From: an uncultured virus (IMG/VR IMGVR_UViG_3300008108_000202)
Taxonomy: Duplodnaviria; Heunggongvirae; Uroviricota; Caudoviricetes
Length of the DNA: 64,000 nt
IMG/VR virus record: IMGVR_UViG_3300008108_000202
Strand: one strand, 5' to 3'
A program made the position numbers and the translations under genes. This document shows positions 16,395 through 50,164 of this stretch, piece after piece. The notes beneath the pieces are model-generated. The model had not been told where the DNA came from. It worked only from the letters and a program-made list of their open reading frames with translations, and made no database searches. How positions within the stretch are numbered: position 1 is the first letter of the stretch; each line of letters begins with the position of its first letter.

Positions 16395-16907
16395 TCAATG
16401 GGAGTCACCAACGTTATGTTTTTCACTGAAAATACTGTAATCAGGATTTATTATTTTTGCAACTTTACTACGTTCACCAGTTACAGATTTCACAACAACA
16501 CCTTCATGTGGAACTTTAGTCCCTTCTATAAAGTTGTTGAATACGTGTTTATCTTGTTCTTCTTTGTTCCAAGTTCCTTTATATAATACCTCAACACTTG
16601 GGAGTCCCAAACAATCAAAATGAACGGTTTCTTCAAGATGGGGTTGGTAAACACCATCAACCTCAACATCAAATCCGACAAATTTTATTTCATCCAAACC
16701 ATATTCATAGTTTTTCTGTATTCCCTTACCGTATATTTCACCATAGATTATGAAACCTTGTTCTAAATCTTCAGGATTGTAAGTATCTTTAATATGTTGC
16801 CACATTTTTTCTTTTATGTCATATTTTTCATTTACTTCAGACCACACGTCTGTTGGATAACAGTGTGTTTGTTTTTTCTTAAAAATTTTACTAAATAACC
16901 TTTTCAT
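16395..16907 (-). CDS. RNA ligase (DRB0094-like), C-terminal half
   Basis: IYGEIYG.GIQKNY, GFDV, HEGVVVK and KIINPDY nucleotidyltransferase motifs. Confidence 0.85.
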   Translation of the reverse strand: MKRLFSKIFKKKQTHCYPTDVWSEVNEKYDIKEKMWQHIKDTYNPEDLEQGFIIYGEIYGKGIQKNYEYGLDEIKFVGFDVEVDGVYQPHLEETVHFDCLGLPSVEVLYKGTWNKEEQDKHVFNNFIEGTKVPHEGVVVKSVTGERSKVAKIINPDYSIFSEKHNVGDSH

Positions 16908-16934
16908 ACTTTTTTTATCCAAAGATAATTAAAT

Positions 16935-17603
16935 TCATACATATTTCCAAATAAACCCACCTGCAGATTTTACTTTATTTTTACAACTGGCGTTGATATT
17001 TGCCTGGTCAATATTAAGTACCCTTGATGCTTCAGCACCTGATTCCCATCTTTTTATAAAATTACCATCTTTAGTAAATTGATTTATTGGTTTTGTGTTT
17101 TTTCTATTCATTTCTGAAAGGTCTGGTCTTTTTATACCTTTGTTACCGTTAGGTTTTCCTTTATTCCAAGGTTCCTTTCCTTTGGCAAATAAATTAGGTA
17201 TTCCTTTGTTCCAAGGAATACGACCTTTCAATGGGCTTATTCGTCCTTTTAGTGATTCAGAATTGGCTTTGTTTTTTTCTTCTTTTAATCTTTCGTATGT
17301 TCTTGATCTGACTTTATAGTCTCTATTTTGACTACCACTTTTCCCAAATAACATAAACCACGTTGCGTGTTTTAATTTAAAATTTTTTGGGTATATTTCT
17401 AAAAGTAATAAATGAGCGATAAAATGCTCTCTAGGAGTTAATAAAACAATATTGGGGTGTGTTCTCCATTGGTGACATTCTCCTTCACCACCTAAACACT
17501 TGGGTATTATGTGGTGAGCTTCGTATGATGTACCTTGTTTTTTCTTTCTATTTTCATTTTTTGCACGAAAGACTAATTGGTTGTATATTTTTTCATAATC
17601 CAT
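16935..17603 (-). CDS. HNH homing endonuclease with NUMOD-type DNA-binding repeats
   Basis: EAHHIIPKCLGG...LTPREHFIAH; PWNKG repeats; C-terminal KSAGGFIWKY. Confidence 0.88.
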   Translation of the reverse strand: MDYEKIYNQLVFRAKNENRKKKQGTSYEAHHIIPKCLGGEGECHQWRTHPNIVLLTPREHFIAHLLLLEIYPKNFKLKHATWFMLFGKSGSQNRDYKVRSRTYERLKEEKNKANSESLKGRISPLKGRIPWNKGIPNLFAKGKEPWNKGKPNGNKGIKRPDLSEMNRKNTKPINQFTKDGNFIKRWESGAEASRVLNIDQANINASCKNKVKSAGGFIWKYV

Positions 17604-17708
17604 AAAAAAGAAATCCCTAAAGAAACTAAAAAGGTACGAGCTTTTTAACTCAATAGGGTTTCTAATAAATTTATTTAAGTTCTCGTACAACCTATAATAT
17701 TATAAATA

Positions 17709-18389
17709 TCATAATGATTGTATATCTTTTAAAACATTATGACTTCCTATATGAAATTCATATTCACACCACTTCCATTTATCACCACCGATACCAAAAT
17801 TGGTGTTTAAGAATATTTTCATCTTTTCAATAAAAGATATTTTTTGTTTCCTTAAAATAGCATAACGGGCATTAGTTCCGTGTATCTTACGAGTGATAAC
17901 TACCTCATCTTCCTCGTTAAACATATCAGGGACATTTTTCATATTTGGGAACTTGTAATAGATGTGAAAATTGGGGTTTTCATTTCTTTTTACTTTACGT
18001 CCATTTCCACCCAAAGTTACCATTTTAACTGGTGGTTCGTATTTGAATATCTCCAATAGTTCCATAACATCAGAACCTTCGTAACGATACTTTTCAGGTA
18101 TGAAACTTATTGGTAAGATCAAACATTCAGAGTAAATTCCACGAAGTTTCACGGTTCTTACTCTTTGTCCTTTACGAAGATATCCAGTAACACCCATACG
18201 ATCAGATATCTCTTTGGGTATTACCGCATCAGTTGTTGTAACGATTACAAGATCACCTTCTTTGTATTCACCCTTTTTGGTTATTGCCATCCAACCATTA
18301 ACACTTACTAATTCTATATTATCAGCACCAGGTATTTGAGTTGGTACTCCAACTTTACCTATATATGCAACACTATTTTGATTTTCCAT
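17709..18389 (-). CDS. RNA ligase (DRB0094-like), N-terminal half
   Basis: IPGADNIE, RVRTVKLRGIYSE and motif I RKIHGTN. Confidence 0.85.
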   Translation of the reverse strand: MENQNSVAYIGKVGVPTQIPGADNIELVSVNGWMAITKKGEYKEGDLVIVTTTDAVIPKEISDRMGVTGYLRKGQRVRTVKLRGIYSECLILPISFIPEKYRYEGSDVMELLEIFKYEPPVKMVTLGGNGRKVKRNENPNFHIYYKFPNMKNVPDMFNEEDEVVITRKIHGTNARYAILRKQKISFIEKMKIFLNTNFGIGGDKWKWCEYEFHIGSHNVLKDIQSL

Positions 18390-18390
18390 A

Positions 18391-18891
18391 TTATATACGT
18401 TTTAAAATTAGACATCCATCTTGGTCAAGTTTTGGTTTTCTTTCAAAACACCCACAATTATGAGCTGGTGAATCTTGAAAACAACCATCATCATTGTTAC
18501 CATTACATTCGCCAATGTACTCCATCTCAATATCAACATCCCATTCAGTTTGTTGTTTCATATGTCTGTCAAACCACTCTTCAAATTCATAAGCGATACT
18601 ATTTTTGCCTATATGTCTTGCAACTGCAAATGCTTCACGTATATCCTGGAAGCCTTTTTGAAACCCTAACATAAGACTTAACTTATGATTATCACCACCT
18701 GTTTCTTGATTTATAGTATTTTTCATACATTCAATAGCCAACTCATCCAAATCATAACCACGCTCAATTGCTTGGCAGTTTTTGAGGGATAGTTTACTAC
18801 CATCGGTACTACCACCAGTGATACCTAAAACATCTCCTGACTCTGATCTCAATAGATATTGATTTCCTGTCTTAATTAGTTTTCCTTTCAT
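18391..18891 (-). CDS. NCQAIE-family protein
   Basis: Paralog of 6963..7481. Confidence 0.85.
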   Translation of the reverse strand: MKGKLIKTGNQYLLRSESGDVLGITGGSTDGSKLSLKNCQAIERGYDLDELAIECMKNTINQETGGDNHKLSLMLGFQKGFQDIREAFAVARHIGKNSIAYEFEEWFDRHMKQQTEWDVDIEMEYIGECNGNNDDGCFQDSPAHNCGCFERKPKLDQDGCLILKRI

Positions 18892-27770: not shown

Positions 27771-28134
27771 TTTCTAATAACTTATCAAGACAAGCAAGTT
27801 CTGCTTTTTCGTAGGTTTTATAAGCTGATAAGTCATTGAATTGTTTATCTATGAAATTAGGGTTTGTTGTGGCAATTACATATTCAAACTTTGCAACACC
27901 ATAATTAGATTCAATCCAAATTCTCAAATCATACTTCTCTCTAAACCATCTAAATGCTTGTGAGAATGTTGGAGCTAATACTCTATCTTCAATATTATTT
28001 AAAAATGAAATTGAATATATTGAGCGGATTTCATGAAATGTAGAATCGGGGTCATAAACACCAAAACAAGGCTCATCAAATCCAAGTGCTTTCATTCTTA
28101 AAGCCAACTCATAAGGTACAAATTCTTTTTCCAT
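27754..28134 (-). CDS. MEKEFVPY-family paralog 3
   Basis: LGFDEPCFG / APTFSQAFRWFREK / AELACL blocks. Confidence 0.88.
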   Translation of the reverse strand: MEKEFVPYELALRMKALGFDEPCFGVYDPDSTFHEIRSIYSISFLNNIEDRVLAPTFSQAFRWFREKYDLRIWIESNYGVAKFEYVIATTNPNFIDKQFNDLSAYKTYEKAELACLDKLLEIVENK

Positions 28135-28135
28135 A

Positions 28136-28555
28136 TTATTTTGATTTAGATTCAACAATTTCAATTAATTTTTCCAAGCAAGCAAGTTCTGCTTCTTCGG
28201 GAGTGTTATATCCATATTTTTTACCAATTAGTGATACTACTTCCATCTTATTCAAATCAACTAATTCAAATTCCCAACCTAGATTTTTCCACTTACAATC
28301 AATAAATGAGTGTAAGTTATGCTTCTCTCTAAACCATCTAAATGCTTGTGAGAAGGTAGGGGCTGAAACTTTTTCCTTTAAATCACCATAAAAATTTAGC
28401 TGAGTATTGTTTCTGAATTTATGATTTTTTCCTTGGAGTATTGTGTCATAATAAATATCAATATCACCTAATTTATAAAACCCAAAACAAGGTCCATCAA
28501 ACCCAAGTGCTTTTAATCTTAAAGCAAGTGGATATGGTACAAATTCTTTTTCCAT
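28136..28555 (-). CDS. MEKEFVPY-family paralog 2
   Basis: Same blocks. Confidence 0.88.
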   Translation of the reverse strand: MEKEFVPYPLALRLKALGFDGPCFGFYKLGDIDIYYDTILQGKNHKFRNNTQLNFYGDLKEKVSAPTFSQAFRWFREKHNLHSFIDCKWKNLGWEFELVDLNKMEVVSLIGKKYGYNTPEEAELACLEKLIEIVESKSK

Positions 28556-28556
28556 A

Positions 28557-28940
28557 TTATTTTGATTTAGATTCTACAATTTCTAATAGCTTTTCAAGAC
28601 AATCAAGTTCTGCTTCTTCGTATGTATTAAAAATCTTTCCATAAAAATCTTCAAAATTATTCAGGTTCAATATTCTAAATGAATATGAATGTATCACAGG
28701 TATTTTACCATTATTCAATCCTCTATCATAAACCTCAGAAGAAAATAAATCATGCTTCTCTCTAAACCATCTGAAGGCTTGTGAGAATGTTGGTGCTGAA
28801 ATAGAAAAACCATGGTCTGAGTTCTTATACCTTCCTTCTATTATTAATTCATCATATTTGTAATATCCAAAACAAGGTTCATCAAACCCAAGTGCTTTAA
28901 GTCTTAATGACGGAGCATAAGGTACAAATTCTTTTTCCAT
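28557..28940 (-). CDS. MEKEFVPY-family paralog 1
   Basis: Same blocks. Confidence 0.88.
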   Translation of the reverse strand: MEKEFVPYAPSLRLKALGFDEPCFGYYKYDELIIEGRYKNSDHGFSISAPTFSQAFRWFREKHDLFSSEVYDRGLNNGKIPVIHSYSFRILNLNNFEDFYGKIFNTYEEAELDCLEKLLEIVESKSK

Positions 28941-29559: not shown

Positions 29560-29904
29560 ATGGAATTAATAATAAATAACAATCTATTCAATGTAAAATG
29601 TGTTTTAACAAAAAAAGACATTGAAGAAGGTATGATGTATAAGAAATTTGATGATACCTTTGATGGAATGTTATTTTTTATGAGAGATGGTGAACATCAT
29701 TTTTGGATGAAAAATTGTGTTATACCTCTTGATATAATTTTCATAAAGGCAAATACTATTTACAAAATACACCATAATTGTAAACCATGTTTTACAAATG
29801 AGTGTGATCACTATTCAGGAGAAGGTGATCTTGTTCTTGAAGTTCTTGGTGGAACTTGTAATAGATATGATATTAAAGAGGGCGATAGAGTTTATTTTGA
29901 CTGA
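29560..29904 (+). CDS. DUF192 family protein
   Basis: GMLF...FWMKNC.IPLDIIF...VLEV. Confidence 0.88.
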   Translation: MELIINNNLFNVKCVLTKKDIEEGMMYKKFDDTFDGMLFFMRDGEHHFWMKNCVIPLDIIFIKANTIYKIHHNCKPCFTNECDHYSGEGDLVLEVLGGTCNRYDIKEGDRVYFD

Positions 29905-31349
29905 TAAAGATATTTCTCATTCCCACAATTAAAGATTCTATAATACCTCAATCCATCCATTATTTCAACTTCAGTTAAATTTTTATCGTAACCTTGTTTA
30001 ACTAATTTATGTTTTTGATAATTAATCCTATTCTCACGTTTACCATTAATAACATAATGATAATTAGGTTTACTTAACCCAATTAAATCAAATCCAAGAT
30101 TTTTATACAAATCACCATTAGCCCAAGATATATCACAATAAGATAACACACTAATAGGATTATAATCTTTAATAAATTGTTTAAATAATTTAGATGCTCC
30201 TCCGATAACGGAAACTCCAACTTTATTACAAAATCTAACTAACTCATATTCATCGTCTTTTTGATTTTTATTCAAAATCTTTCTTGTCTTCATAAAAGTC
30301 ATCAACGATATTAACTCACCATTATAATATAATCCATAATTAATGTTAGTATTAACAAAACCTTGTAAGTGATTTTTGATCAAAAATTCTTTAACTATAT
30401 TTTTATCTTTAATGATTTTTATGTTTGTTTTTCTGGCATATACCCTATTTGAGGTATTTAAAATATTTCCAATTATTGACTTAACAATATCATATTTAAA
30501 ATCAAAATCATCTTCAAATATATGAATCAATCTGACACCATTCTCATTACATATTTTGGTTTTTTTAATGTGGTAATCGTTCTCAACGAATAATTCAGAA
30601 TGCCACCTAAGACCATTAAATTCAAATCCTATTTTTAATTTAGGTAAATAAATATCAATTTCTTTACGATTAATTTTGTATGATTGGATAATCTCACCAT
30701 CATATAATTCACTTATTAATTTGAATAACAAAATTTCTTTACCCGATACGTTACTATCAACCGGATTACATTCACAACATAGTTCAGTTTTAATTATTTT
30801 CCTGTTAGCAAATAAACCTTTAGGTATTTTGGATTGTCCGTGAATATCACACTTCACAATAAAATGTTTTTCATCTTGATCAATCACTTGGGGGTTATCA
30901 ATCAAAAATTGTTTAAATATTGTTTCTTTTCTTTTTTCTTTTTCTTTACCCCCATTTTCATATTTCCATTTTTCACTTTGTCTAAAATGTTCCGTACCCC
31001 ATTTTAATAAACTAGTTTTTTTTGATTTTTCTTTAAACTCCTTTGTCTTGAAGGGGGTTTTTTCTCCGTATTTTTCAACACAGGTATTTTCTCGTTTTGT
31101 TTTATTGCAAACAGAAGAACAAGTATAATACCCACCTCTACTAATTGATTGATTATATCTTCTATATTGAATTTTTACTTCTTTACCACAAACATCACAA
31201 ACCGCATCAACGATTAAATGACTTTGTGGATTAACCAACTCAATTGGTAATTCGTTATACTCATTGAGTATAACATCTATATTATTTTTTCTATAGTAGT
31301 CGGCAACATTTCCAGTGATCCTTATTTTGAGTGTTTTTGTTAAAAGCAT
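29892..31349 (-). CDS. putative homing-type endonuclease (PD-(D/E)xK-like core, zinc fingers)
   Basis: EIDIYLP...GFEFNG..WH, RLIHIFEDD; C-terminal NHLQG...GGASKL domain. Confidence 0.7.
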   Translation of the reverse strand: MLLTKTLKIRITGNVADYYRKNNIDVILNEYNELPIELVNPQSHLIVDAVCDVCGKEVKIQYRRYNQSISRGGYYTCSSVCNKTKRENTCVEKYGEKTPFKTKEFKEKSKKTSLLKWGTEHFRQSEKWKYENGGKEKEKRKETIFKQFLIDNPQVIDQDEKHFIVKCDIHGQSKIPKGLFANRKIIKTELCCECNPVDSNVSGKEILLFKLISELYDGEIIQSYKINRKEIDIYLPKLKIGFEFNGLRWHSELFVENDYHIKKTKICNENGVRLIHIFEDDFDFKYDIVKSIIGNILNTSNRVYARKTNIKIIKDKNIVKEFLIKNHLQGFVNTNINYGLYYNGELISLMTFMKTRKILNKNQKDDEYELVRFCNKVGVSVIGGASKLFKQFIKDYNPISVLSYCDISWANGDLYKNLGFDLIGLSKPNYHYVINGKRENRINYQKHKLVKQGYDKNLTEVEIMDGLRYYRIFNCGNEKYLYQSK

Positions 31350-31404: not shown

Positions 31405-32805
31405 TTATTCTTCACCAATTTTTTCTTTCAATACTCTAACAAATTCTCTTTGTATCATTTTTGTGAATTTAACATACGCAGCATCTTCACTATCTTTTTG
31501 GTATTTGTATTTACCTGATGGAGGTCTTTTAGATCTACCAAGATAACTTAAACCTGAAATGTTAGTTATACATTTGTGCCCACCACTATTAGAAACAATC
31601 ACATCCCAAGCACTTACAGTGATATTATCCAACATACTCATTTCCTCTTCAGTTAAATCACTAAATGGTTTGGACATTGCGGTTTCAATGTCTTTCATTA
31701 ATGATTTTCCACTCTCACTTTTTGATTCAAATCCATATAATGCTTTGAAATCTTTAAACGTAAACCCAACTGACTCAGATCCAAAATCTTTACCTGATTC
31801 TGAAACCCACTTTATTGTTGATAATGGTATTTGTCTATCCTTAAGTTGTGATTCCCACTTCGCAAGAACCTCATCTTTAATTTCACCTAAATTAACACCT
31901 TTAAGTGCTCTTTCTTTTTTAAACGGATTACAAGATGCTTGAACCAATCCCAAAGGCCAAGCAATAACCAAGAAATCGGCTTCAGGATTATTTCTAAATG
32001 GTGTGTATCTATCATAAGATCCTGGTTTCATCATTGATCCTCCACCATATTGAACTATTATATTACCTTCAATCTGAACATTTGGGTGACTTTTCATTGT
32101 TTGAACATACTCTTCCTTGTGTTTTTCTAAAGATTCAACTCCAGCATATCCTTTTTCCGCAATTTGAGATCTAATGTTATTTAATATACTAATTAATGAT
32201 GGTTTCGCATTTAAAACGATTGAATCCAAGAAACCTGGTTTGTTCTTATAAGCCAACAATAATTTATTAACAACCAACCCCATTAACATTTTGTTTCTTT
32301 GTAATGATTTGTCTTTATCAAGTTTAAAAAGATAATTCATTACTTCCTCGGGGGTAATATCAAATCTTGCATAATCCGCAGAATCTACTGTTGAAATTAA
32401 CTGAATATCTTCAGGTGAAAATATTTCTTTTGGGGAAATAATTTGAGATATTGTTTCAACATTTGACCTTGAGGATCTAAAACTTGTTGATGTTCCTTGC
32501 TCAACACCAGCTTGTGTATCGTGGTGATCAGTATGGATTACAAACATTGGACGGCCATGGGCAAAATCAACCAAAACCGGCATTACATCCCCATTTGCGT
32601 CCATTTTTTTTATTGCAAATTCTTTATCACCATATTGTATTATTTCAGCATCAACAACTTTAATCCCGTTATTTTCAAGATAATGTTTCATTGCCAATGC
32701 GGTTGTTACTCCGTCAAGTCAAAGGTCCTGGTGAAAGTAGATTTTCGCTTTTGGGTATCTTCTAGCGAGAGATGTGATATCTCGTAATCCACTTTCAACC
32801 AGGAC
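31405..32805 (-). CDS. DHH/DHHA1 phosphoesterase interrupted by in-frame TGA-CTT in motif I; start codon not visible
   Basis: VLVESGLRDI...YFHQDL*LDGVTTALAMK; VLVDFAH, HTDHHD and SGGHK motifs. Confidence 0.8.
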
Positions 32806-33078
32806 GTGTCTATTTTTATTTTTTTATCCTTTGTTTCCATTTCTTTGGTTGCAGGGTTTTATATTGGTTCAGCTTATAATAGTAAGTATGGGCCTCAGAA
32901 ACCTACGATCCATACCGTAAAGGTAAACAGGAGTCAAGTCAATCTTGCTCTTGATGAACACAATCACCTGATAATTATTGATAAGAAGACGGGAGATTAT
33001 ACCGTATATCAAGATTCAATTGGTGTTTCCGTATTTAAACTCTATGCGAGAAATATTTTTTCTGACGTTTCAAAATAA
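32806..33078 (+). CDS. membrane-anchored hypothetical protein (possibly 5'-truncated)
   Basis: N-terminal hydrophobic stretch; no room for a promoter against the divergent DHH gene. Confidence 0.65.
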   Translation: MSIFIFLSFVSISLVAGFYIGSAYNSKYGPQKPTIHTVKVNRSQVNLALDEHNHLIIIDKKTGDYTVYQDSIGVSVFKLYARNIFSDVSK

Positions 33079-35572: not shown

Positions 35573-36421
35573 TTAAACAATATCATCCCTCATCAATTCC
35601 AACGTCTTGAAGTAATTAACTCTTGTATTAGCAATATTACAATAATTTGGTGATAATTCAATTCCCAACCATCTTCTTCCCAATACTTCCGCAGCAACCA
35701 ATGTAGTCCCACTACCAGCAAATGGATCTAAAATTACATCATTTTTGTAGGATAAAATCTTGATAGCTTTGGTTGGGATGTCCATTGAGAACGTTGCTTT
35801 GGTGAGTGACTTAGTATCTGCAAAGTAATTCCACTGACCAAAAACAAGCTCCATAAACTCCTTCTTATCCGTTTCTTCATACACAACTTTCTTTTTTATG
35901 GTTCCATCCTCCTGTTCAATTTCAGTAGGTGTCCCTTTCCACTGAGGTTCTCCTTTAACCTTTTTAATATGGTGTTTTTTGTATGCAAGTATTACACACT
36001 CCTTTGGGTTATATATGTAGGGACTAGACGGACTCATCCAAGATCCCCAAGCAGTTGTTTTACTTCTGTGTGGTGATTCTTCTTCCAAATCAACAATACC
36101 GAAGAAACCAAATCCAATTTCCTTCATAATTTGCCACATCTCCGATACAAAGAATATTCTTCCACCTTTCTTTTGTCTGTTGATTTCGTATGGGATATTC
36201 AAAGCAATTCGTCCATCGTCTTTTAATACATTATATGCTTCAGTTAACCAATTTTTACTAAACACTTTGTATTCCTCAAACTCAACATCATCTTCGTGTA
36301 CATCATAATCAATACCAACCCCATAAGGACAGCTGGTTACAATTAAATCCACACTACCTTCAGGTAATGTTTTCATTACCTCAATACAATCCCCATTAAT
36401 TATTCTTCCTGTTTCTATCAT
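35573..36421 (-). CDS. DNA methyltransferase, N4/N6 beta class
   Basis: GDC, TSCPY (SPPY variant) and LDPFAGSGTT motifs. Confidence 0.9.
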   Translation of the reverse strand: MIETGRIINGDCIEVMKTLPEGSVDLIVTSCPYGVGIDYDVHEDDVEFEEYKVFSKNWLTEAYNVLKDDGRIALNIPYEINRQKKGGRIFFVSEMWQIMKEIGFGFFGIVDLEEESPHRSKTTAWGSWMSPSSPYIYNPKECVILAYKKHHIKKVKGEPQWKGTPTEIEQEDGTIKKKVVYEETDKKEFMELVFGQWNYFADTKSLTKATFSMDIPTKAIKILSYKNDVILDPFAGSGTTLVAAEVLGRRWLGIELSPNYCNIANTRVNYFKTLELMRDDIV

Positions 36422-37242
36422 TTTTTCTCTAATGTTTCAATGTGATGTTGTAAGTACCATAAGGCTTTCTTTAGATCCTCAAGTTCTTTATCCTTATTCT
36501 TTTTTCCTGCTCTTGAGATATACTTTACGGTATTACCCAAACTGAACCCTAAGTCCCACGCATCAATCACCTTGATGGCTTCATAAAGATTATCCGATCC
36601 TCCATAATGACTTGGGTGATTAACTTGTTCTTTATTGTTTTCCATTTTATTGTTTGTTTTATGAGCCCAAAATACTCCATCAATATAATAGGTATTAAAT
36701 CCATACCAGTCAAATGAATCAACAACTTTATTTACCCCCTCTGTTGGGTCTTTTGAGGATTTATAATCATCCAAATATATTATACCATTATCGCTTACAA
36801 AATTAATCAGATTATTTAAATCTCCCCTAACACATTCTTCAAAATGACACCCATCAATCTCAATAAAATCAAATTTACTTTTTACCGTATCTAAAACTCT
36901 TGGGACAACTTCAAGTGAGTTACCGGGAATAAGATTCAAATGTATGTTAAATTTTTTATAATGTTCAACAAGAATTTCAAAGTTATTAATCACATTATCA
37001 TGCTTGCAATCATCAAAGATTAAAATTCTAATTGGTTCTTGATTAAAGTTTGGGTCATCGTTTTTGAGTTTAACCAATGAATCACATATTAACTTCATTG
37101 AATGTCCTTCGTTAAAACCTACCTCAATAATATTTTTTGGTTTTGTTTGATATACAAGATCTTGTAAGGTGTACATTCTTTCGGGATACCAACTAATGTT
37201 ACCTTCACCGCAACCAACTACCATTCCTTTTAATAACTCCAT
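36418..37242 (-). CDS. class I SAM methyltransferase (Methyltransf_24-like) fused to DUF3310-like domain
   Basis: IEVGFNEGHS, IDGCH, LDDY; C-terminal VNHPSHY...GNTVKYISRAGKK...DLKKALWYL. Confidence 0.8.
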   Translation of the reverse strand: MELLKGMVVGCGEGNISWYPERMYTLQDLVYQTKPKNIIEVGFNEGHSMKLICDSLVKLKNDDPNFNQEPIRILIFDDCKHDNVINNFEILVEHYKKFNIHLNLIPGNSLEVVPRVLDTVKSKFDFIEIDGCHFEECVRGDLNNLINFVSDNGIIYLDDYKSSKDPTEGVNKVVDSFDWYGFNTYYIDGVFWAHKTNNKMENNKEQVNHPSHYGGSDNLYEAIKVIDAWDLGFSLGNTVKYISRAGKKNKDKELEDLKKALWYLQHHIETLEKK

Positions 37243-42958: not shown

Positions 42959-43627
42959 TTAATTTACGTTTTTCCAACTTCTACCATTTTTTAATTCATA
43001 GAAAAAACCTTTTCTAATTTGCGGGTAGAGTTCTGTTAATTGTTTAATTTTTATCCCCTCATTTATTTTTTGTTTTATTTCCTTAACTAATTCAACCCCA
43101 TATTTTGAGTTTTTTTGTTTAGTTTCATAAATTTTACTAACTCGTTTTTCTTTTTCTTCTTTTGATATTGATCCCCAACCTTTTTTAACTGATAATCTTC
43201 TTTTTTCTCGTTCTTCGTCCGCCTTGTCCCCATATAACTCTTCATAAGTTTTACCTTTGTGTGAGTTACCATTTTTAGTATTTTCCGAAATTTTTTTCCT
43301 TATTTCAGGCGAATGAACATATCCTAAACACCCTTCACCACCAAATGTAGAATTTAATCCATTTTTATACGTTTTGAATTCGGTAATATAAAATTTTTCT
43401 CTTTCATAAATATTTAATACATTACATTCTTCAATTATTTCTATATTAAAATTTTCAACCCCATATTTTCTAATAGAATTACAAAATTTAGTATTAGAGT
43501 CAGTTTTTAAACATCTGTAAACGTGTTCTTCAAATCTTTTATTTATAGAATTAATCGTACATCCAATATATTCTTTTTTGTTTATTAGATTTGTTATTTT
43601 ATATATGTGTCCTTTTTGTGTGCTCAT
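42959..43627 (-). CDS. GIY-YIG homing endonuclease
   Basis: HIYKITN...YIG...R...E...GLN; NUMOD3-like HSPEIRKKIS. Confidence 0.88.
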   Translation of the reverse strand: MSTQKGHIYKITNLINKKEYIGCTINSINKRFEEHVYRCLKTDSNTKFCNSIRKYGVENFNIEIIEECNVLNIYEREKFYITEFKTYKNGLNSTFGGEGCLGYVHSPEIRKKISENTKNGNSHKGKTYEELYGDKADEEREKRRLSVKKGWGSISKEEKEKRVSKIYETKQKNSKYGVELVKEIKQKINEGIKIKQLTELYPQIRKGFFYELKNGRSWKNVN

Positions 43628-45039: not shown

Positions 45040-45157
45040 AATATTTTGTTTTTTTAAGTATAAAACAAAGATAGTAAATAATTTATAATAACCAACTAAC
45101 ATCAAAAAAAATTTTAAAATTATGGGGTGTTTATACCAAACCCATATATTTATATAT

Positions 45158-45937
45158 ATGAGATGTTATGTTTATTTACACAGAAGATTAGACAATAATG
45201 AAGTTTTTTATGTTGGTAGAGGAACCGTTAATATAAAAGCTAGTGGTAAATGTGATACCAACACATATAGTCGTGCTTATGCTATTCATAAACATAATAA
45301 ATATTGGATTAGAATAACAAATAAAGTTTCTTGGTCGGTTGAGATTATTGAGGATTTTTTAACTTGGGATGAATCCATGTTATCAGAAATTAAATACATA
45401 AAAAAGTATGGTAGGAAAGATTTAAATGAGGGGACTTTAGTTAATTTTACAGATGGTGGTGAGGGATCTAAAGGTGTTATTGTTTCAGAATTAGTTAAAT
45501 CAATACAAAAAAATCGGATGAGTTCAGATGACAATCCAATGAAACTACAACATAATAAAATAAAACAAAGTATTAGAATGAAAAAAAATAATCCAATGAA
45601 AAATAATGAAACCAAAAAAAAAGTTAGTGAATCACAAAAATCCATTTGGTTAAATGGGACTGAAAATCATCCAAGAAAAAATAAACCTAGAGAAGATTTG
45701 AGGTTGAGAAACCTAACTAATAATCCAACTAAAAACCCAGAAGTTATTGAGAAAATAAGACAATCAGCATTAATGAGGGATAATAAAGGCGGTAAAAGTC
45801 CTAACGCAAAAAAAGTAATGGACGTAAATTCAGGTAAAACATACACATCAATAAAAGAATGTATGGAAGGAATGGGTATTTCTCACACTTCAATTTATCG
45901 TTATTTAAAAAATGGTAAAGTTATTTATATTAATTAA
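45158..45937 (+). CDS. GIY-YIG-like homing endonuclease
   Basis: YVYLH...FYVGRG...R...E...LVNFTDGGEG; NPMK repeats; C-terminal HTH. Confidence 0.8.
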   Translation: MRCYVYLHRRLDNNEVFYVGRGTVNIKASGKCDTNTYSRAYAIHKHNKYWIRITNKVSWSVEIIEDFLTWDESMLSEIKYIKKYGRKDLNEGTLVNFTDGGEGSKGVIVSELVKSIQKNRMSSDDNPMKLQHNKIKQSIRMKKNNPMKNNETKKKVSESQKSIWLNGTENHPRKNKPREDLRLRNLTNNPTKNPEVIEKIRQSALMRDNKGGKSPNAKKVMDVNSGKTYTSIKECMEGMGISHTSIYRYLKNGKVIYIN

Positions 45938-48140: not shown

Positions 48141-48992
48141 TCAATAATTCATTATGAGTAACTCTTCTCCCATGTTTTGTTTCTCACCTTTTTTTGCCGA
48201 TGCCGCCTTGGCAAATTGTTTCTTTTCCCATCTGTATTGATCTTCAGGGAACCATTCGTGAAGTAGTTCAAAGTCATAATATGAAAGACTAAACTTACCT
48301 TTTATATTGTGTAATGTTTTGGCTAATCTCTCATGATCATTTCTATCAAAGTCGTGATTTGAGTAATAATTCCCTTCTCCAACCACATAATAAGGCGGGT
48401 CAACATAAAAATATGTCGTTGAGGTATCATATTTTTCAATTACGTTTTGGAAGTCCATATTTTCAACAAAATCTATTCTTTCAAACATTTTTTGCCAATT
48501 TTCATTTTTTAACTTATTTTTAAATGATGTGAATTTAGAGTGATATTTACCCTTTAAATCAATGAATTTAGATTTAGCAGGGTTAGATCCTGAAAATACT
48601 TGTGTTAATACATAAACATATTTGGCTGCGGTTTCATAATCATAAGCTTTAACCCTGAAATTTTCATCAAATATTTCAGCCTGAAACCTGGCGAACAATT
48701 CTCCACAAATTGGATTAGTCGGGTAAACTCCTTTTTCTTGAATTAACAACTTCTCACATTCCTGAAGGAGTTGTTTATGATCCTTTAAGCATTGATACAT
48801 ATTATAATTCAATTTATTAAAATCGTTATAAACGACAGTTTTTAAATTTGGGTAGTCTTCCAAGTTCATTTTAAAAAATGTCCAAAATTGACCACTAAAT
48901 GGTTCAACATACGTTTCAATATCTTTTGGGATATTAGGGATTATTAATTGTGGGGCGATTTTTGACTTACCACCTATATAACTTACACACAT
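48141..48992 (-). CDS. dam: Dam-like (D12 class) DNA adenine methyltransferase
   Basis: YIGGKS, YVEPFSG, VYND and DPPY motifs. Confidence 0.9.
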   Translation of the reverse strand: MCVSYIGGKSKIAPQLIIPNIPKDIETYVEPFSGQFWTFFKMNLEDYPNLKTVVYNDFNKLNYNMYQCLKDHKQLLQECEKLLIQEKGVYPTNPICGELFARFQAEIFDENFRVKAYDYETAAKYVYVLTQVFSGSNPAKSKFIDLKGKYHSKFTSFKNKLKNENWQKMFERIDFVENMDFQNVIEKYDTSTTYFYVDPPYYVVGEGNYYSNHDFDRNDHERLAKTLHNIKGKFSLSYYDFELLHEWFPEDQYRWEKKQFAKAASAKKGEKQNMGEELLIMNY

Positions 48993-49076
48993 AATTTATT
49001 TTTTCTTATAATTATAATTTATTTATAGTGGTAAATCAATTCACTTTTATATTTATCTTAAATATTATTACTTACT

Positions 49077-49235
49077 ATGGAAAAGAAAAAAGCAACTCAA
49101 GTAACAGGTTGTAGAGTATGTAAAAAAGGTTTAAGTAAAAATCAGTGGGGTATGGTTATAATCGGTTCATACATATTTGGGACATCGGTATATGGAACTA
49201 TTGAAATAATAAAATTAGTGTACTCCCTATTTTAA
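49077..49235 (+). CDS. 52 aa CxxC + TM protein (not in ORF track)
   Basis: Hand translation [18 protein letters not shown]...LVYSLF. Confidence 0.65.
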
Positions 49236-50164
49236 TCCCTTTCAAATCTTACATGCTGATTAATTAGGAGATCCCCAATGACTTCATTTTTAAACCCTTT
49301 GGATTTAATTCTCAATGGTTTTGTTGTATCAAATACTTGTGGTAATTTAATAGATAAATCACCATCAGGATGTGGTATTACAAGAGTATCTTTTTTAAGA
49401 TCTTCATAATTAAAATAAGCATTGTAAACCAAATGTTGTCCTAATTTTTCAAAATTATTATATGGAATCAACCTTACTCTAATAACCAAATTACCATAAA
49501 TCCCATTCCTAAAATCACCAACACCTTGTAGTCTTACAAATTGACCATCATCAATACCTTGAGGTAATTGTATTTCAACAGATTTCATTTCGTCTTTTGT
49601 TCCACTTCCATGACAATTATAACAAGGTTTAATAATCATTTGACCAGTACCATTACAAACATTACAAGCAACCTGAACTATTTGAACAAACATTCCTGAA
49701 CCCATTTGTCTAATAGTATGACCTTGACCTCCACACCCATTACAAACAACCTTATCTCCTCCACCACCATTACAAGGATCACATTTTATTTTTCTTTTGT
49801 ATGTAATCTTTTTGTTTGAACCCAAATAAGATTCTATAACATTTACTTGAGTATCAATAACTAAATCATGAACTCTATTTCTTTCTCTTGTACCACCAAA
49901 TGCTTGATCATACATTTTTTGAAATAAGTCATTATATCCTCCTCCGCCTTGACCAAATGGATTCTTTCTTTGGAAGTCATATTCTTTTCTCTTGTTTTCA
50001 TCTCCTAATGAGTCATAAGCAACTGAAATCTTTTTAAATGTTTCTTCATCCCCACCTTTATCAGGATGGTTTTCTTTAGCTAATTTTCTATATGCTTTTT
50101 TTATGTCTTCTTGTGTTGCGTTTTCATCAACACCAAGTATTTCATAATAATTTTCAGTATTCAT
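49232..50164 (-). CDS. dnaJ: DnaJ chaperone
   Basis: J-domain HPD, four CxxCxGxG repeats, C-terminal domain. Confidence 0.95.

Follow-up and report, generated by a model that had tools for sequence, protein, structure and literature searches.

A probable stop-hop bypass in metal-binding motif I of a phage DHH/DHHA1 phosphoesterase gene

The stretch of DNA analysed here, referred to as the window, comprises 64,000 nucleotides (nt) from an uncultured virus of the Caudoviricetes (IMG/VR record IMGVR_UViG_3300008108_000202). On its minus strand lies a gene for a DHH/DHHA1 phosphoesterase, which is broken within metal-binding motif I by a stop codon between two leucine codons. We conclude with good confidence that ribosomes are programmed to bypass this break by a 'stop-hop', and that the site is part of a homing-endonuclease cassette comparable to T4 mobA/gene 60. 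In related phages the design of the site is conserved, the gap between the leucine codons forms a series of lengths with changes of frame, the gene body is under purifying selection, an upstream stem covaries, inheritance is mosaic, and the insert is linked to an upstream open reading frame (ORF). Only re-pairing of peptidyl-tRNA(Leu), from a take-off codon CTN to a landing codon CTN, gives the canonical enzyme from every allele, which argues for bypass.

The break and the enzyme that it interrupts

Read on the minus strand, the site is AAA ATC TAC TTT CAC CAG GAC CTT TGA CTT GAC GGA GTA. A preliminary description of this DNA had pointed to CTT-TGA-CTT inside motif I, and both the letters and the coordinates (32724-32716) are exactly as given there. 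The site and the gene body are made up as follows.

32722..32724, minus strand: take-off codon CTT, which encodes Leu32 in motif I (H-Q-D-L-D-G) (window sequence)
32719..32721, minus strand: in-frame stop TGA, a coding gap of 3 nt, in the A site at take-off (window sequence)
32716..32718, minus strand: landing codon CTT, after which decoding would resume at GAC (Asp33) (window sequence)
31405..32715, minus strand: remainder of the DHH/DHHA1 phosphoesterase gene, from the codon behind the landing site through its own stop (open ORF, motifs, structural model)

The reading frame is open for 34 codons before the TGA and for 437 codons after it, and a scan of the whole 64 kb for in-frame interruptions returned this one TGA inside a long ORF.

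The encoded enzyme belongs to a divergent, phage-only branch of the DHH/DHHA1 family. An alignment of 42 diverse homologues showed H29, D31, D33, G34, D82, D95-H96-H97, D143 and G410-G411-H412 to be invariant; these residues we take to be DHH motifs I-IV (DxD, D, DHH, D) and the GGGH of DHHA1. The break therefore lies between both metal-binding aspartates, at the nearly invariant Leu32. An AlphaFold (AF2) model reached a predicted local distance difference test score (pLDDT) of 91.6 and has the two-domain DHH fold; 75 PDB chains matched it at E<=1e-3, with DhhP, PggH, GdpP, RecJ and NrnA as the best structural matches. At the level of sequence profiles the branch is remote: the read-through protein of the window had no Pfam DHH match, and a full-length homologue (P0004) scored 22.5 bits on PF01368 (DHH), under the gathering cut-off of 28.1.

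A protein search gave 4139 matches at E<=1e-3 among 7999 scored candidates. When 24 homologues were aligned with the window protein, HQD-L-DG was present in 18 full-length rows, in agreement with the canonical HQDLDG that had been predicted as the product of hopping. The spacer between the two aspartates is one residue in 214 of 270 fetched homologues and longer in none, the motif being absent from the first 200 residues of the remaining 56. The best 80 viral loci comprised 70 with HQDLDG, 1 with HQDSDG, 6 with Leu-stop-Leu (one of them with TAG) and 3 that were unmatched by the pattern. Six close homologues, 81-91% identical to the window protein, have been called only from MKHY (429 aa). A blastn search against deposited phages found two uncultured huge-phage records only, which covered parts of the gene body and were uninformative for the site.

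A natural allelic series in related phages

Two doubts had been entertained beforehand, that the insert is unique and that it lacks sequencing support, and neither held. The same design occurs in 53 viral and at least 8 metagenome contigs, and contigs from 4 sequencing runs of 4 studies cross the site without any difference. The viral contigs fall into four classes according to the length of the hop that would restore the enzyme.

+6 hop, 40 viral contigs: CTT TGA CTT in 17, CTT TGA CTG in 9, CTG TGA CTT in 7, CTT TAG CTT in 6 and CTT TAA CTT in 1
+8 hop, 2 viral contigs: CTT TGA CG, then CTA or CTG
+9 hop, 5 viral contigs: CTC, then TGA or TAA, then GGG CTT
+11 hop, 6 viral contigs: CTT TGA GGGAA CTT in 3 and CTT TGA CGGGT CTT in 3

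The +6 class was found by a first pattern scan for NNN-TRR-NNN in the DHH gene, which gave these 40 viral contigs and 3 further, unrelated matches. The +8, +9 and +11 forms were found through a search with the upstream ORF of the relatives, followed by a pattern with a variable gap. In metagenome contigs any 9 nt were allowed at the site, and all of the related loci among the matches listed, at least 8, were Leu-stop-Leu; this count is a lower bound because an unrelated FHQDLNGDGVIG repeat made up most of the matches and swamped those listed.

The take-off codon is CTT, CTG or CTC in 53 of 53 viral contigs, and a CTN codon stands directly before GAY GGN in every allele, including those with gaps of 5, 6 and 8 nt. 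Take-off and landing codons are both CTN in all 53 viral and at least 8 metagenome contigs, with mixed third bases in some (CTT/CTG, CTC/CTT, CTT/CTA). TGA, TAG and TAA all occur after the take-off codon; a control scan that allowed any codon between the CTN codons gave back the same +6 viral contigs, with a stop in the middle in 40 of 40. The gap sequences themselves differ (TGA, TAG, TAA, TGACG, TGAGGG, TGAGGGAA and TGACGGGT) and contain no homopolymer run. In the 8 contigs of the +8 and +11 forms, the gene body is in another frame than the first 35 codons and is open for at least 436 aa after landing.

In the window allele the two parts of the gene are in frame, so a full-length protein would also result from readthrough of the stop, by a suppressor tRNA or through reassignment of TGA, and phages with reassigned stop codons exist. 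The product would be an enzyme with two extra residues (HQDL-X-LDG), that is with three residues between D31 and D33, whereas 0 of the 214 motif-bearing homologues exceed one. All three stop codons occur at the site, however, TGA is the terminator of 7 of the 43 long ORFs (>=150 aa) of the window, no tRNA gene is present in these 64 kb, and the gap is invariably flanked by CTN codons, for which readthrough has no need. Because the +8 and +11 forms change the frame, with gaps of 5 or 8 nt in 8 contigs, we regard readthrough, suppression and reassignment of TGA as ruled out and give them scarcely any credence.

A shift by one nucleotide was also considered. The +1 frameshift site of prfB, the gene for release factor 2 (RF2), is CUU UGA C with an upstream element resembling a Shine-Dalgarno (SD) sequence. 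The DHH site shares with it the slippery leucine codon, the stop and the following C, as well as a purine-rich, SD-like AGGA just upstream. Unlike in prfB, only a +6 move restores the DHH protein; a +1 shift at CUU UGA C was rejected because the +1 frame ends at a TAA after four codons.

A conserved RNA structure upstream of the take-off codon

The following element abuts the take-off codon.

32725..32805, minus strand: 81-nt RNA structure with a 19-bp closing stem, which has one bulge, and two inner hairpins (fold, covariation)

Its arms had been proposed as GTCCTGGTTGAAAGTGGATT (32805-32786) and AATCTACTTTCACCAGGAC (32743-32725), and they pair as described, with one bulged U and one G-U pair; the 3' arm was correctly placed directly before the take-off codon. 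AGGA lies within this arm, one base before the take-off codon. Folding of the 81 nt yields -34.2 kcal/mol (z = -7.76), a stability that 0 of 200 dinucleotide shuffles reached. A further hairpin inside the stem, likewise described before, appears in the fold as GAGAU/AUCUC together with a second inner hairpin. By minimum free energy (MFE) the inner hairpins form in most alleles, with a register that shifts between lineages and no column-wise covariation (helix 2 is 78% paired); because they do not covary column by column, we claim only the outer stem. The arms are built from codons that are unusual for this DNA, as had been noticed: G or C occupies the third codon position at a frequency (GC3) of 0.22 over the 43 ORFs of at least 150 aa, in which GTC makes up 4% of Val and CTG 0.5% of Leu codons, and CAG and GAC, also rare codons of the arms, 16% of Gln and 16% of Asp codons.

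The structure goes with the insert. The possibility that orthologues without the insert keep the same hairpin was not borne out, the stem being absent in all 46 unique insert-less alleles. Over the 90 nt before take-off, 24 unique alleles with the insert have MFE values from -40.0 to -29.4 kcal/mol (mean -34.7) and the 46 without it values from -17.5 to -5.6 kcal/mol (mean -9.8), and these ranges do not overlap (Mann-Whitney p = 9e-12). Between 17 and 19 of the 19 stem pairs are formed in insert-bearing alleles, against 7-14 in insert-less alleles.

An alignment of the stem was made from 31 of 32 unique alleles, the stem-less L382/L091 type being left out. In it 97.5% of the stem cells pair, compared with 35-51% in slid controls, and RNAalifold independently gives the same stem (16 pairs). 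The covariation that the preliminary description had proposed to look for was found: two pairs change on both sides (GC<->AU), namely column 10:90 (GC in 27 alleles, AU in 3, GU in 1) and column 16:84 (GC in 19, AU in 12), and four more pairs vary through G-U. Synonymous divergence in the 27 codons of the stem region is 0.00-0.50 between insert-bearing pairs, versus 0.34-0.74 just downstream, and synonymous sites after the landing codon diverge freely; insert-less pairs show no such drop (0.43-0.85 versus 0.52-0.70 downstream). The covariation, together with amino-acid changes that make the 5' arm (V-L-V/I for L-I-x), argues for selection on pairing.

A single type of allele is without the 5' arm. 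In five contigs (L091, L099, L112, L123 and L124), CTT-TGA-CTT and the 3' arm are kept next to a 5' arm of the insert-less type, with an MFE of -10.3 kcal/mol. In this type a TCA->TAA nonsense change is found at an invariant serine and many invariant residues are changed; it is probably a decaying recombinant.

A strong and conserved RNA structure abutting the gap might also serve as a guide for removal of the gap before translation, whether by editing of the RNA, by processing of a tiny segment or by slippage during transcription. Matched CTN codons and an obligatory stop are signatures of tRNA re-pairing, however, for which excision would have no need; the gap sequences differ and offer no homopolymer run for slippage; and we know of no RNA-level removal of 3-8 nt in bacteria. 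We consider such removal highly improbable.

Gene integrity and selection

A further alternative is that the gene is simply broken, either as a pseudogene or with a truncated protein made from a downstream Met or TTG, and that hairpin and insert are scars of nuclease-driven recombination. It would account for the start at MKHY that gene callers assign to the six close homologues, for the decay seen in one lineage (the L091 group) and for the absence of a start codon from the window copy. The gene bodies behind the break are nevertheless under purifying selection, which excludes decay for the group: within clades that consist only of insert-bearing alleles, the ratio of nonsynonymous to synonymous divergence (dN/dS) is 0.05-0.27 at dS of 0.1-2.4, near saturation (11 pairs). 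The 35 upstream codons are open up to the stop, and the family residues E-S-G...R-Y are kept in 27 of 28 unique alleles. That protein is made only from a downstream start, which had been raised as a possibility, is unlikely, since the Met codon is replaced by an Ile or Val codon (ATA, ATT or GTG) in L087/L111, L105, L117 and L385/L405, and a protein from this Met would be without strand beta-1 and both motif I aspartates. The other frame of the body in 8 contigs and the covarying stem are also at odds with a broken gene, and we judge this explanation to be very unlikely.

Mobility of the 5' module and its link to a putative nuclease gene

The insert has a mosaic distribution. A tree built from 73 unique gene bodies, 23 of them with the insert, requires at least 9 changes, and well-supported branches force at least 6 of these. 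An insert-bearing locus (L114) and an insert-less one (L010) have near-identical bodies from about 30 nt after landing to the end of the gene; upstream they differ completely, and L114 has about 950 extra bp with a 297-aa ORF. The N-terminal module passes from one gene lineage to another.

In 13 of 27 unique bypass alleles the DHH gene is immediately preceded, on its own strand and at about -1011 to -91 nt, by an ORF that we call HNH-like ('MIKSVWKP...'); a fragment of this ORF is present in one more. Its motif reads Y-H-L-D-H...N-L...N..K, with invariant H242, D244, H245, N267, N276 and K279 and four Cys pairs; look-alikes in the Atlas include HNH, DUF723 and NUMOD3 clusters, which are leads only. 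Upstream of insert-less genes such an ORF was present in 3 of 52 unique alleles, as short relatives of 33-38% identity beside other N-terminal variants. In intact relatives of the window lineage, the stretch just before the ATG reads LDGLIQITKYLYEKQ*, which by eye resembles the C-terminus of the HNH-like ORF, LDELIQQTKYLYKNN.

The preliminary description had tied the insert to an endonuclease-like ORF on the other side of the gene.

29892..31349, minus strand: free-standing homing-endonuclease-like ORF of 485 aa, just downstream of the DHH gene (phrog_3339)

This ORF is indeed endonuclease-like, matching phrog_3339 'homing endonuclease' at E 2.7e-98 and also phrog_559 'HNH endonuclease'. It is sporadic: among unique alleles, it accompanies 4 of 20 that have the insert and 2 of 46 that do not, so that the proposed nuclease link is weak for this ORF and holds for the HNH-like ORF upstream in relatives. 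Insert-less alleles from other phages (…TTCCACCAAGATTTGGAT…) share the runs X3, X4, X5 and X8 with the insert-bearing phage, showing up as loose ends at L004 position 4109; the co-occurrence bears on the proposal because homing would need both kinds of allele in the same place.

The first part of the gene is also variable in other ways. In a second N-terminal variant (…VVIVTHQD[LS]DGVVSG…), seen in L029, L032 and L034 and in the proteins P0003, P0006, P0015, P0019 and P0049, about the first 100 residues are swapped, and some insert-less genes are preceded by a shorter relative of the HNH-like ORF (257-259 aa). Nuclease-driven exchange seems to have a hotspot at the 5' end of the DHH gene.

The missing start codon and an apparent 190-bp deletion

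No start codon is visible for the DHH gene in the window, as the preliminary description had cautioned, and the reason is that the window is without 190 bp that contain the ATG.

32816..32818, no strand: junction of the 190-bp deletion relative to three near-identical contigs (comparison)
32806..32823, minus strand: 5' coding remnant, codons 5-8 of the MTTSKNRH of relatives, without the ATG (comparison)

The 190 bp are present in six loci of three near-identical contigs (L002/L115, L004/L107 and L005/L098), and the nearest virus record (G001), 100% identical on both flanks, has them as extra sequence at about window position 32817. They hold the ATG of the DHH gene (MTTSKNRHVLVESG...; MTTSKNRH...). 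Without them the DHH gene has neither its start codon nor its promoter region, and a divergent membrane-protein gene on the plus strand (MKEKFVKFF...) is without its start.

These observations would fit a bypass that is real in the phage group and a window copy that is non-functional through a genuine deletion, in which the divergent membrane-protein gene was beheaded as well. The joint is absent, however, from the contigs of the 4 sequencing runs compared, and since the window elsewhere agrees with the intact contigs at 99.7-100% identity, any deletion is either very recent or an assembly error. A genuinely non-functional window copy is thus a serious possibility, although we lean against it.

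Other features of the window

The preliminary description had counted the DHH site as the second of two bypass candidates; scans of the window turned up no second convincing case. Searches for codon-stop-codon arrangements, in-frame interruptions and matched codons separated by as many as 90 nt otherwise returned ordinary gene junctions only, and no break was seen in the stretches 5' of two methyltransferase genes (48850-49260 and 36380-36520). One scan match, at 17714-17676, was rejected as a bypass: it falls in an RNA ligase gene that is split by an HNH homing-endonuclease ORF. Within this gene (phrog_968; 16395-18401, minus strand) the endonuclease ORF occupies 16938-17603 (phrog_655), and the rest of the ligase is encoded by an ORF of its own at 16395-16928; either a split gene or an intron-borne endonuclease may explain the arrangement.

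Further homing-endonuclease-like ORFs lie at 42962-43627 (minus strand) and 45122-45934 (plus strand), one of GIY-YIG type (phrog_314/5123) and the other a member of phrog_314, and four homing-endonuclease-like genes are present in the 64-kb window. The segments 28056-28199 and 28478-28620 are about 87% alike and about 420 bp apart; they are probably tandem paralogous small genes, like the MNKQKIILKWLNKE... series in L010.

Discussion

From the allelic series, the structure and the linkage described above we infer the hop itself, a role for the stem, targeting by a nuclease and immunity of the carrier, as follows. The ribosome would read 35 codons to CUU (Leu). With CUU in the P site, and the stop codon and a following C in the A site, termination would be slow, a stop followed by C being a poor termination context. 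The peptidyl-tRNA would then unpair, the mRNA advance by 6 (or 8, 9 or 11) nt, and the tRNA re-pair at the next CUN, with decoding resumed from GAC. Nine nucleotides would thus give one leucine, and the metal-binding motif HQDLDG would be made, with IYFHQDLDGVTT spanning the junction and no residue added. The third base varies (CUU, CUG, CUC, CUA), which could be served by a tRNA(Leu) able to read every CUN codon or by two-out-of-three pairing.

The 3' arm of the stem would be inside the ribosome at take-off, and its refolding with the free 5' arm on exit could pull the mRNA forward. AGGA in the 3' arm may pair with 16S rRNA and add an SD-like pull, and the longer gaps, which are G-rich (GGG, GGGAA, CGGGT), may serve a similar purpose. 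Break, hairpin and the recoded first ~45 codons would form a module that travels with the upstream HNH-like homing-endonuclease gene; in the window lineage this gene would have been lost, with the bypass module alone remaining. Since the insert stands in a motif whose amino acids cannot be changed, it would protect its carrier from cleavage.

Several points weigh against this reading. The pattern scans required F-H-Q-D and D-G, and alleles that had decayed there would be missed. The covariation consists of two pairs only, behind which there may be few evolutionary events, and the low synonymous divergence of the stem region could stem partly from recent spread of the module and not from RNA constraint. 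There is no take-off stem-loop that contains the take-off codon, the conserved stem ending one base before it. The HNH-like ORF is not found upstream in 13 of the 27 bypass alleles, that of the window included, and its identity is uncertain. Among 48,161 chains searched with VIA-align, the best two matches to its model were HNH endonucleases, at Z of 5.0 and 4.7, which is under the level that VIA-align calls reliable; it had no Pfam, NCBIfam or PDB-sequence match, Foldseek gave nothing below E 0.25, and no match emerged when two further nuclease ORFs from the window were compared with it by hhalign. Because the family libraries are silent and the Z scores low, the ORF is named HNH-like and not taken as a proven HNH endonuclease. 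Finally, the window copy has neither a start codon nor a promoter region; this genome may carry a dead gene, or its assembly may be in error.

To our knowledge, programmed bypassing comprises one bench-proven bacterial or phage case, T4 gene 60, and one mitochondrial system. The bypass of T4 gene 60 spans 50 nt and lies within a mobA (HNH) cassette; the insert protects its carrier from MobA, and the endonuclease is often lost while the bypass is retained (bioRxiv 10.1101/2022.08.31.505936). The same preprint proposes a role for the 5' stem-loop of gene 60 in driving the mRNA forward, a drive worded by Wills et al. as 'pairing of mRNA exiting ribosomes', and states that similar bypassing had not been reported in other phages as of 2022.

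The DHH stop-hop, as proposed from the sequences, would be a miniature natural counterpart of the gene 60 jump. In both, a stop directly follows the take-off codon, the break is near the 5' end of the ORF with a short nascent chain (35 aa in DHH, 46 in gene 60), and it lies in or beside a metal-binding motif of a conserved enzyme. Both have an mRNA structure 5' of take-off that is proposed to drive the mRNA forward. As with mobA/gene 60, the distribution is sporadic and mosaic, and as with mobA an HNH-type (here HNH-like) free-standing nuclease gene lies directly upstream and is often lost, the bypass staying. The differences are also clear. The gap between the codons is 3-8 nt in DHH and 47 nt in gene 60; the DHH site has no take-off stem-loop and no room for an internal SD ahead of landing, and it leaves its gene in one piece. 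The 5' structure of DHH is large, conserved and covarying, whereas the 5' stem-loop of gene 60 homologues is reported as not conserved. The host gene encodes a DHH phosphoesterase and not a topoisomerase, the nuclease is of another family, and there is no sequence homology.

According to a 2016 review, no natural in-frame stop hop is known, and synthetic stop-hops are low-efficiency events in artificial constructs (PMC5009743). With these the DHH site shares the +6 architecture of codon, stop and same codon and a product two residues shorter than the readthrough product; unlike them it is natural and conserved, and it sits in a catalytic motif with a dedicated upstream RNA structure. Two other groups of short bypasses have been described (PMC5009743; bioRxiv 10.1101/2022.08.31.505936; PMC10732093): the mitochondrial byps of Magnusiomyces capitatus, which are 27-55 nt long and rely on a codon that has no assignment, and short candidates in the terminase genes of Streptomyces phages, where the rare codon UUA is central and a regulatory function is suggested. 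Like the DHH insert, these are short non-coding inserts in essential genes whose take-off and landing third bases may differ; unlike it, they have no link to homing endonucleases in these accounts. Our literature search, which did not cover subscription journals, found no bypass in a DHH gene, no natural stop-hop and no account of this locus.

If the hop is real, the DHH locus is the first natural stop-hop. It adds an independent case of bypassing and comes as a ready experimental series of four gap lengths, three stops, five take-off/landing pairs, stem variants and one stem-less allele, with which short reporters could address directly how the mRNA is driven forward. For annotation, it means that such genes are now called as truncated ORFs, as in the six close homologues that start at MKHY. 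Beyond this locus, we slightly favour the view that large AT-rich phages carry a class of portable 'micro-bypass' modules, planted by free-standing homing endonucleases in invariant catalytic motifs. If this is true, each module would combine a strong upstream RNA structure with a stop-led gap of 3-8 nt between codons of the same tRNA, and it would make its carrier immune to cleavage, at no protein cost, in places where the nuclease site could not be weakened by synonymous changes alone. The +6/+8/+9/+11 series of DHH would then show that 5' mRNA structure alone drives efficient hopping, without a take-off stem-loop or an internal SD. The logic of gene 60, in which a selfish nuclease is paired with a protecting bypass, may thus be a recurring strategy and not a one-off.

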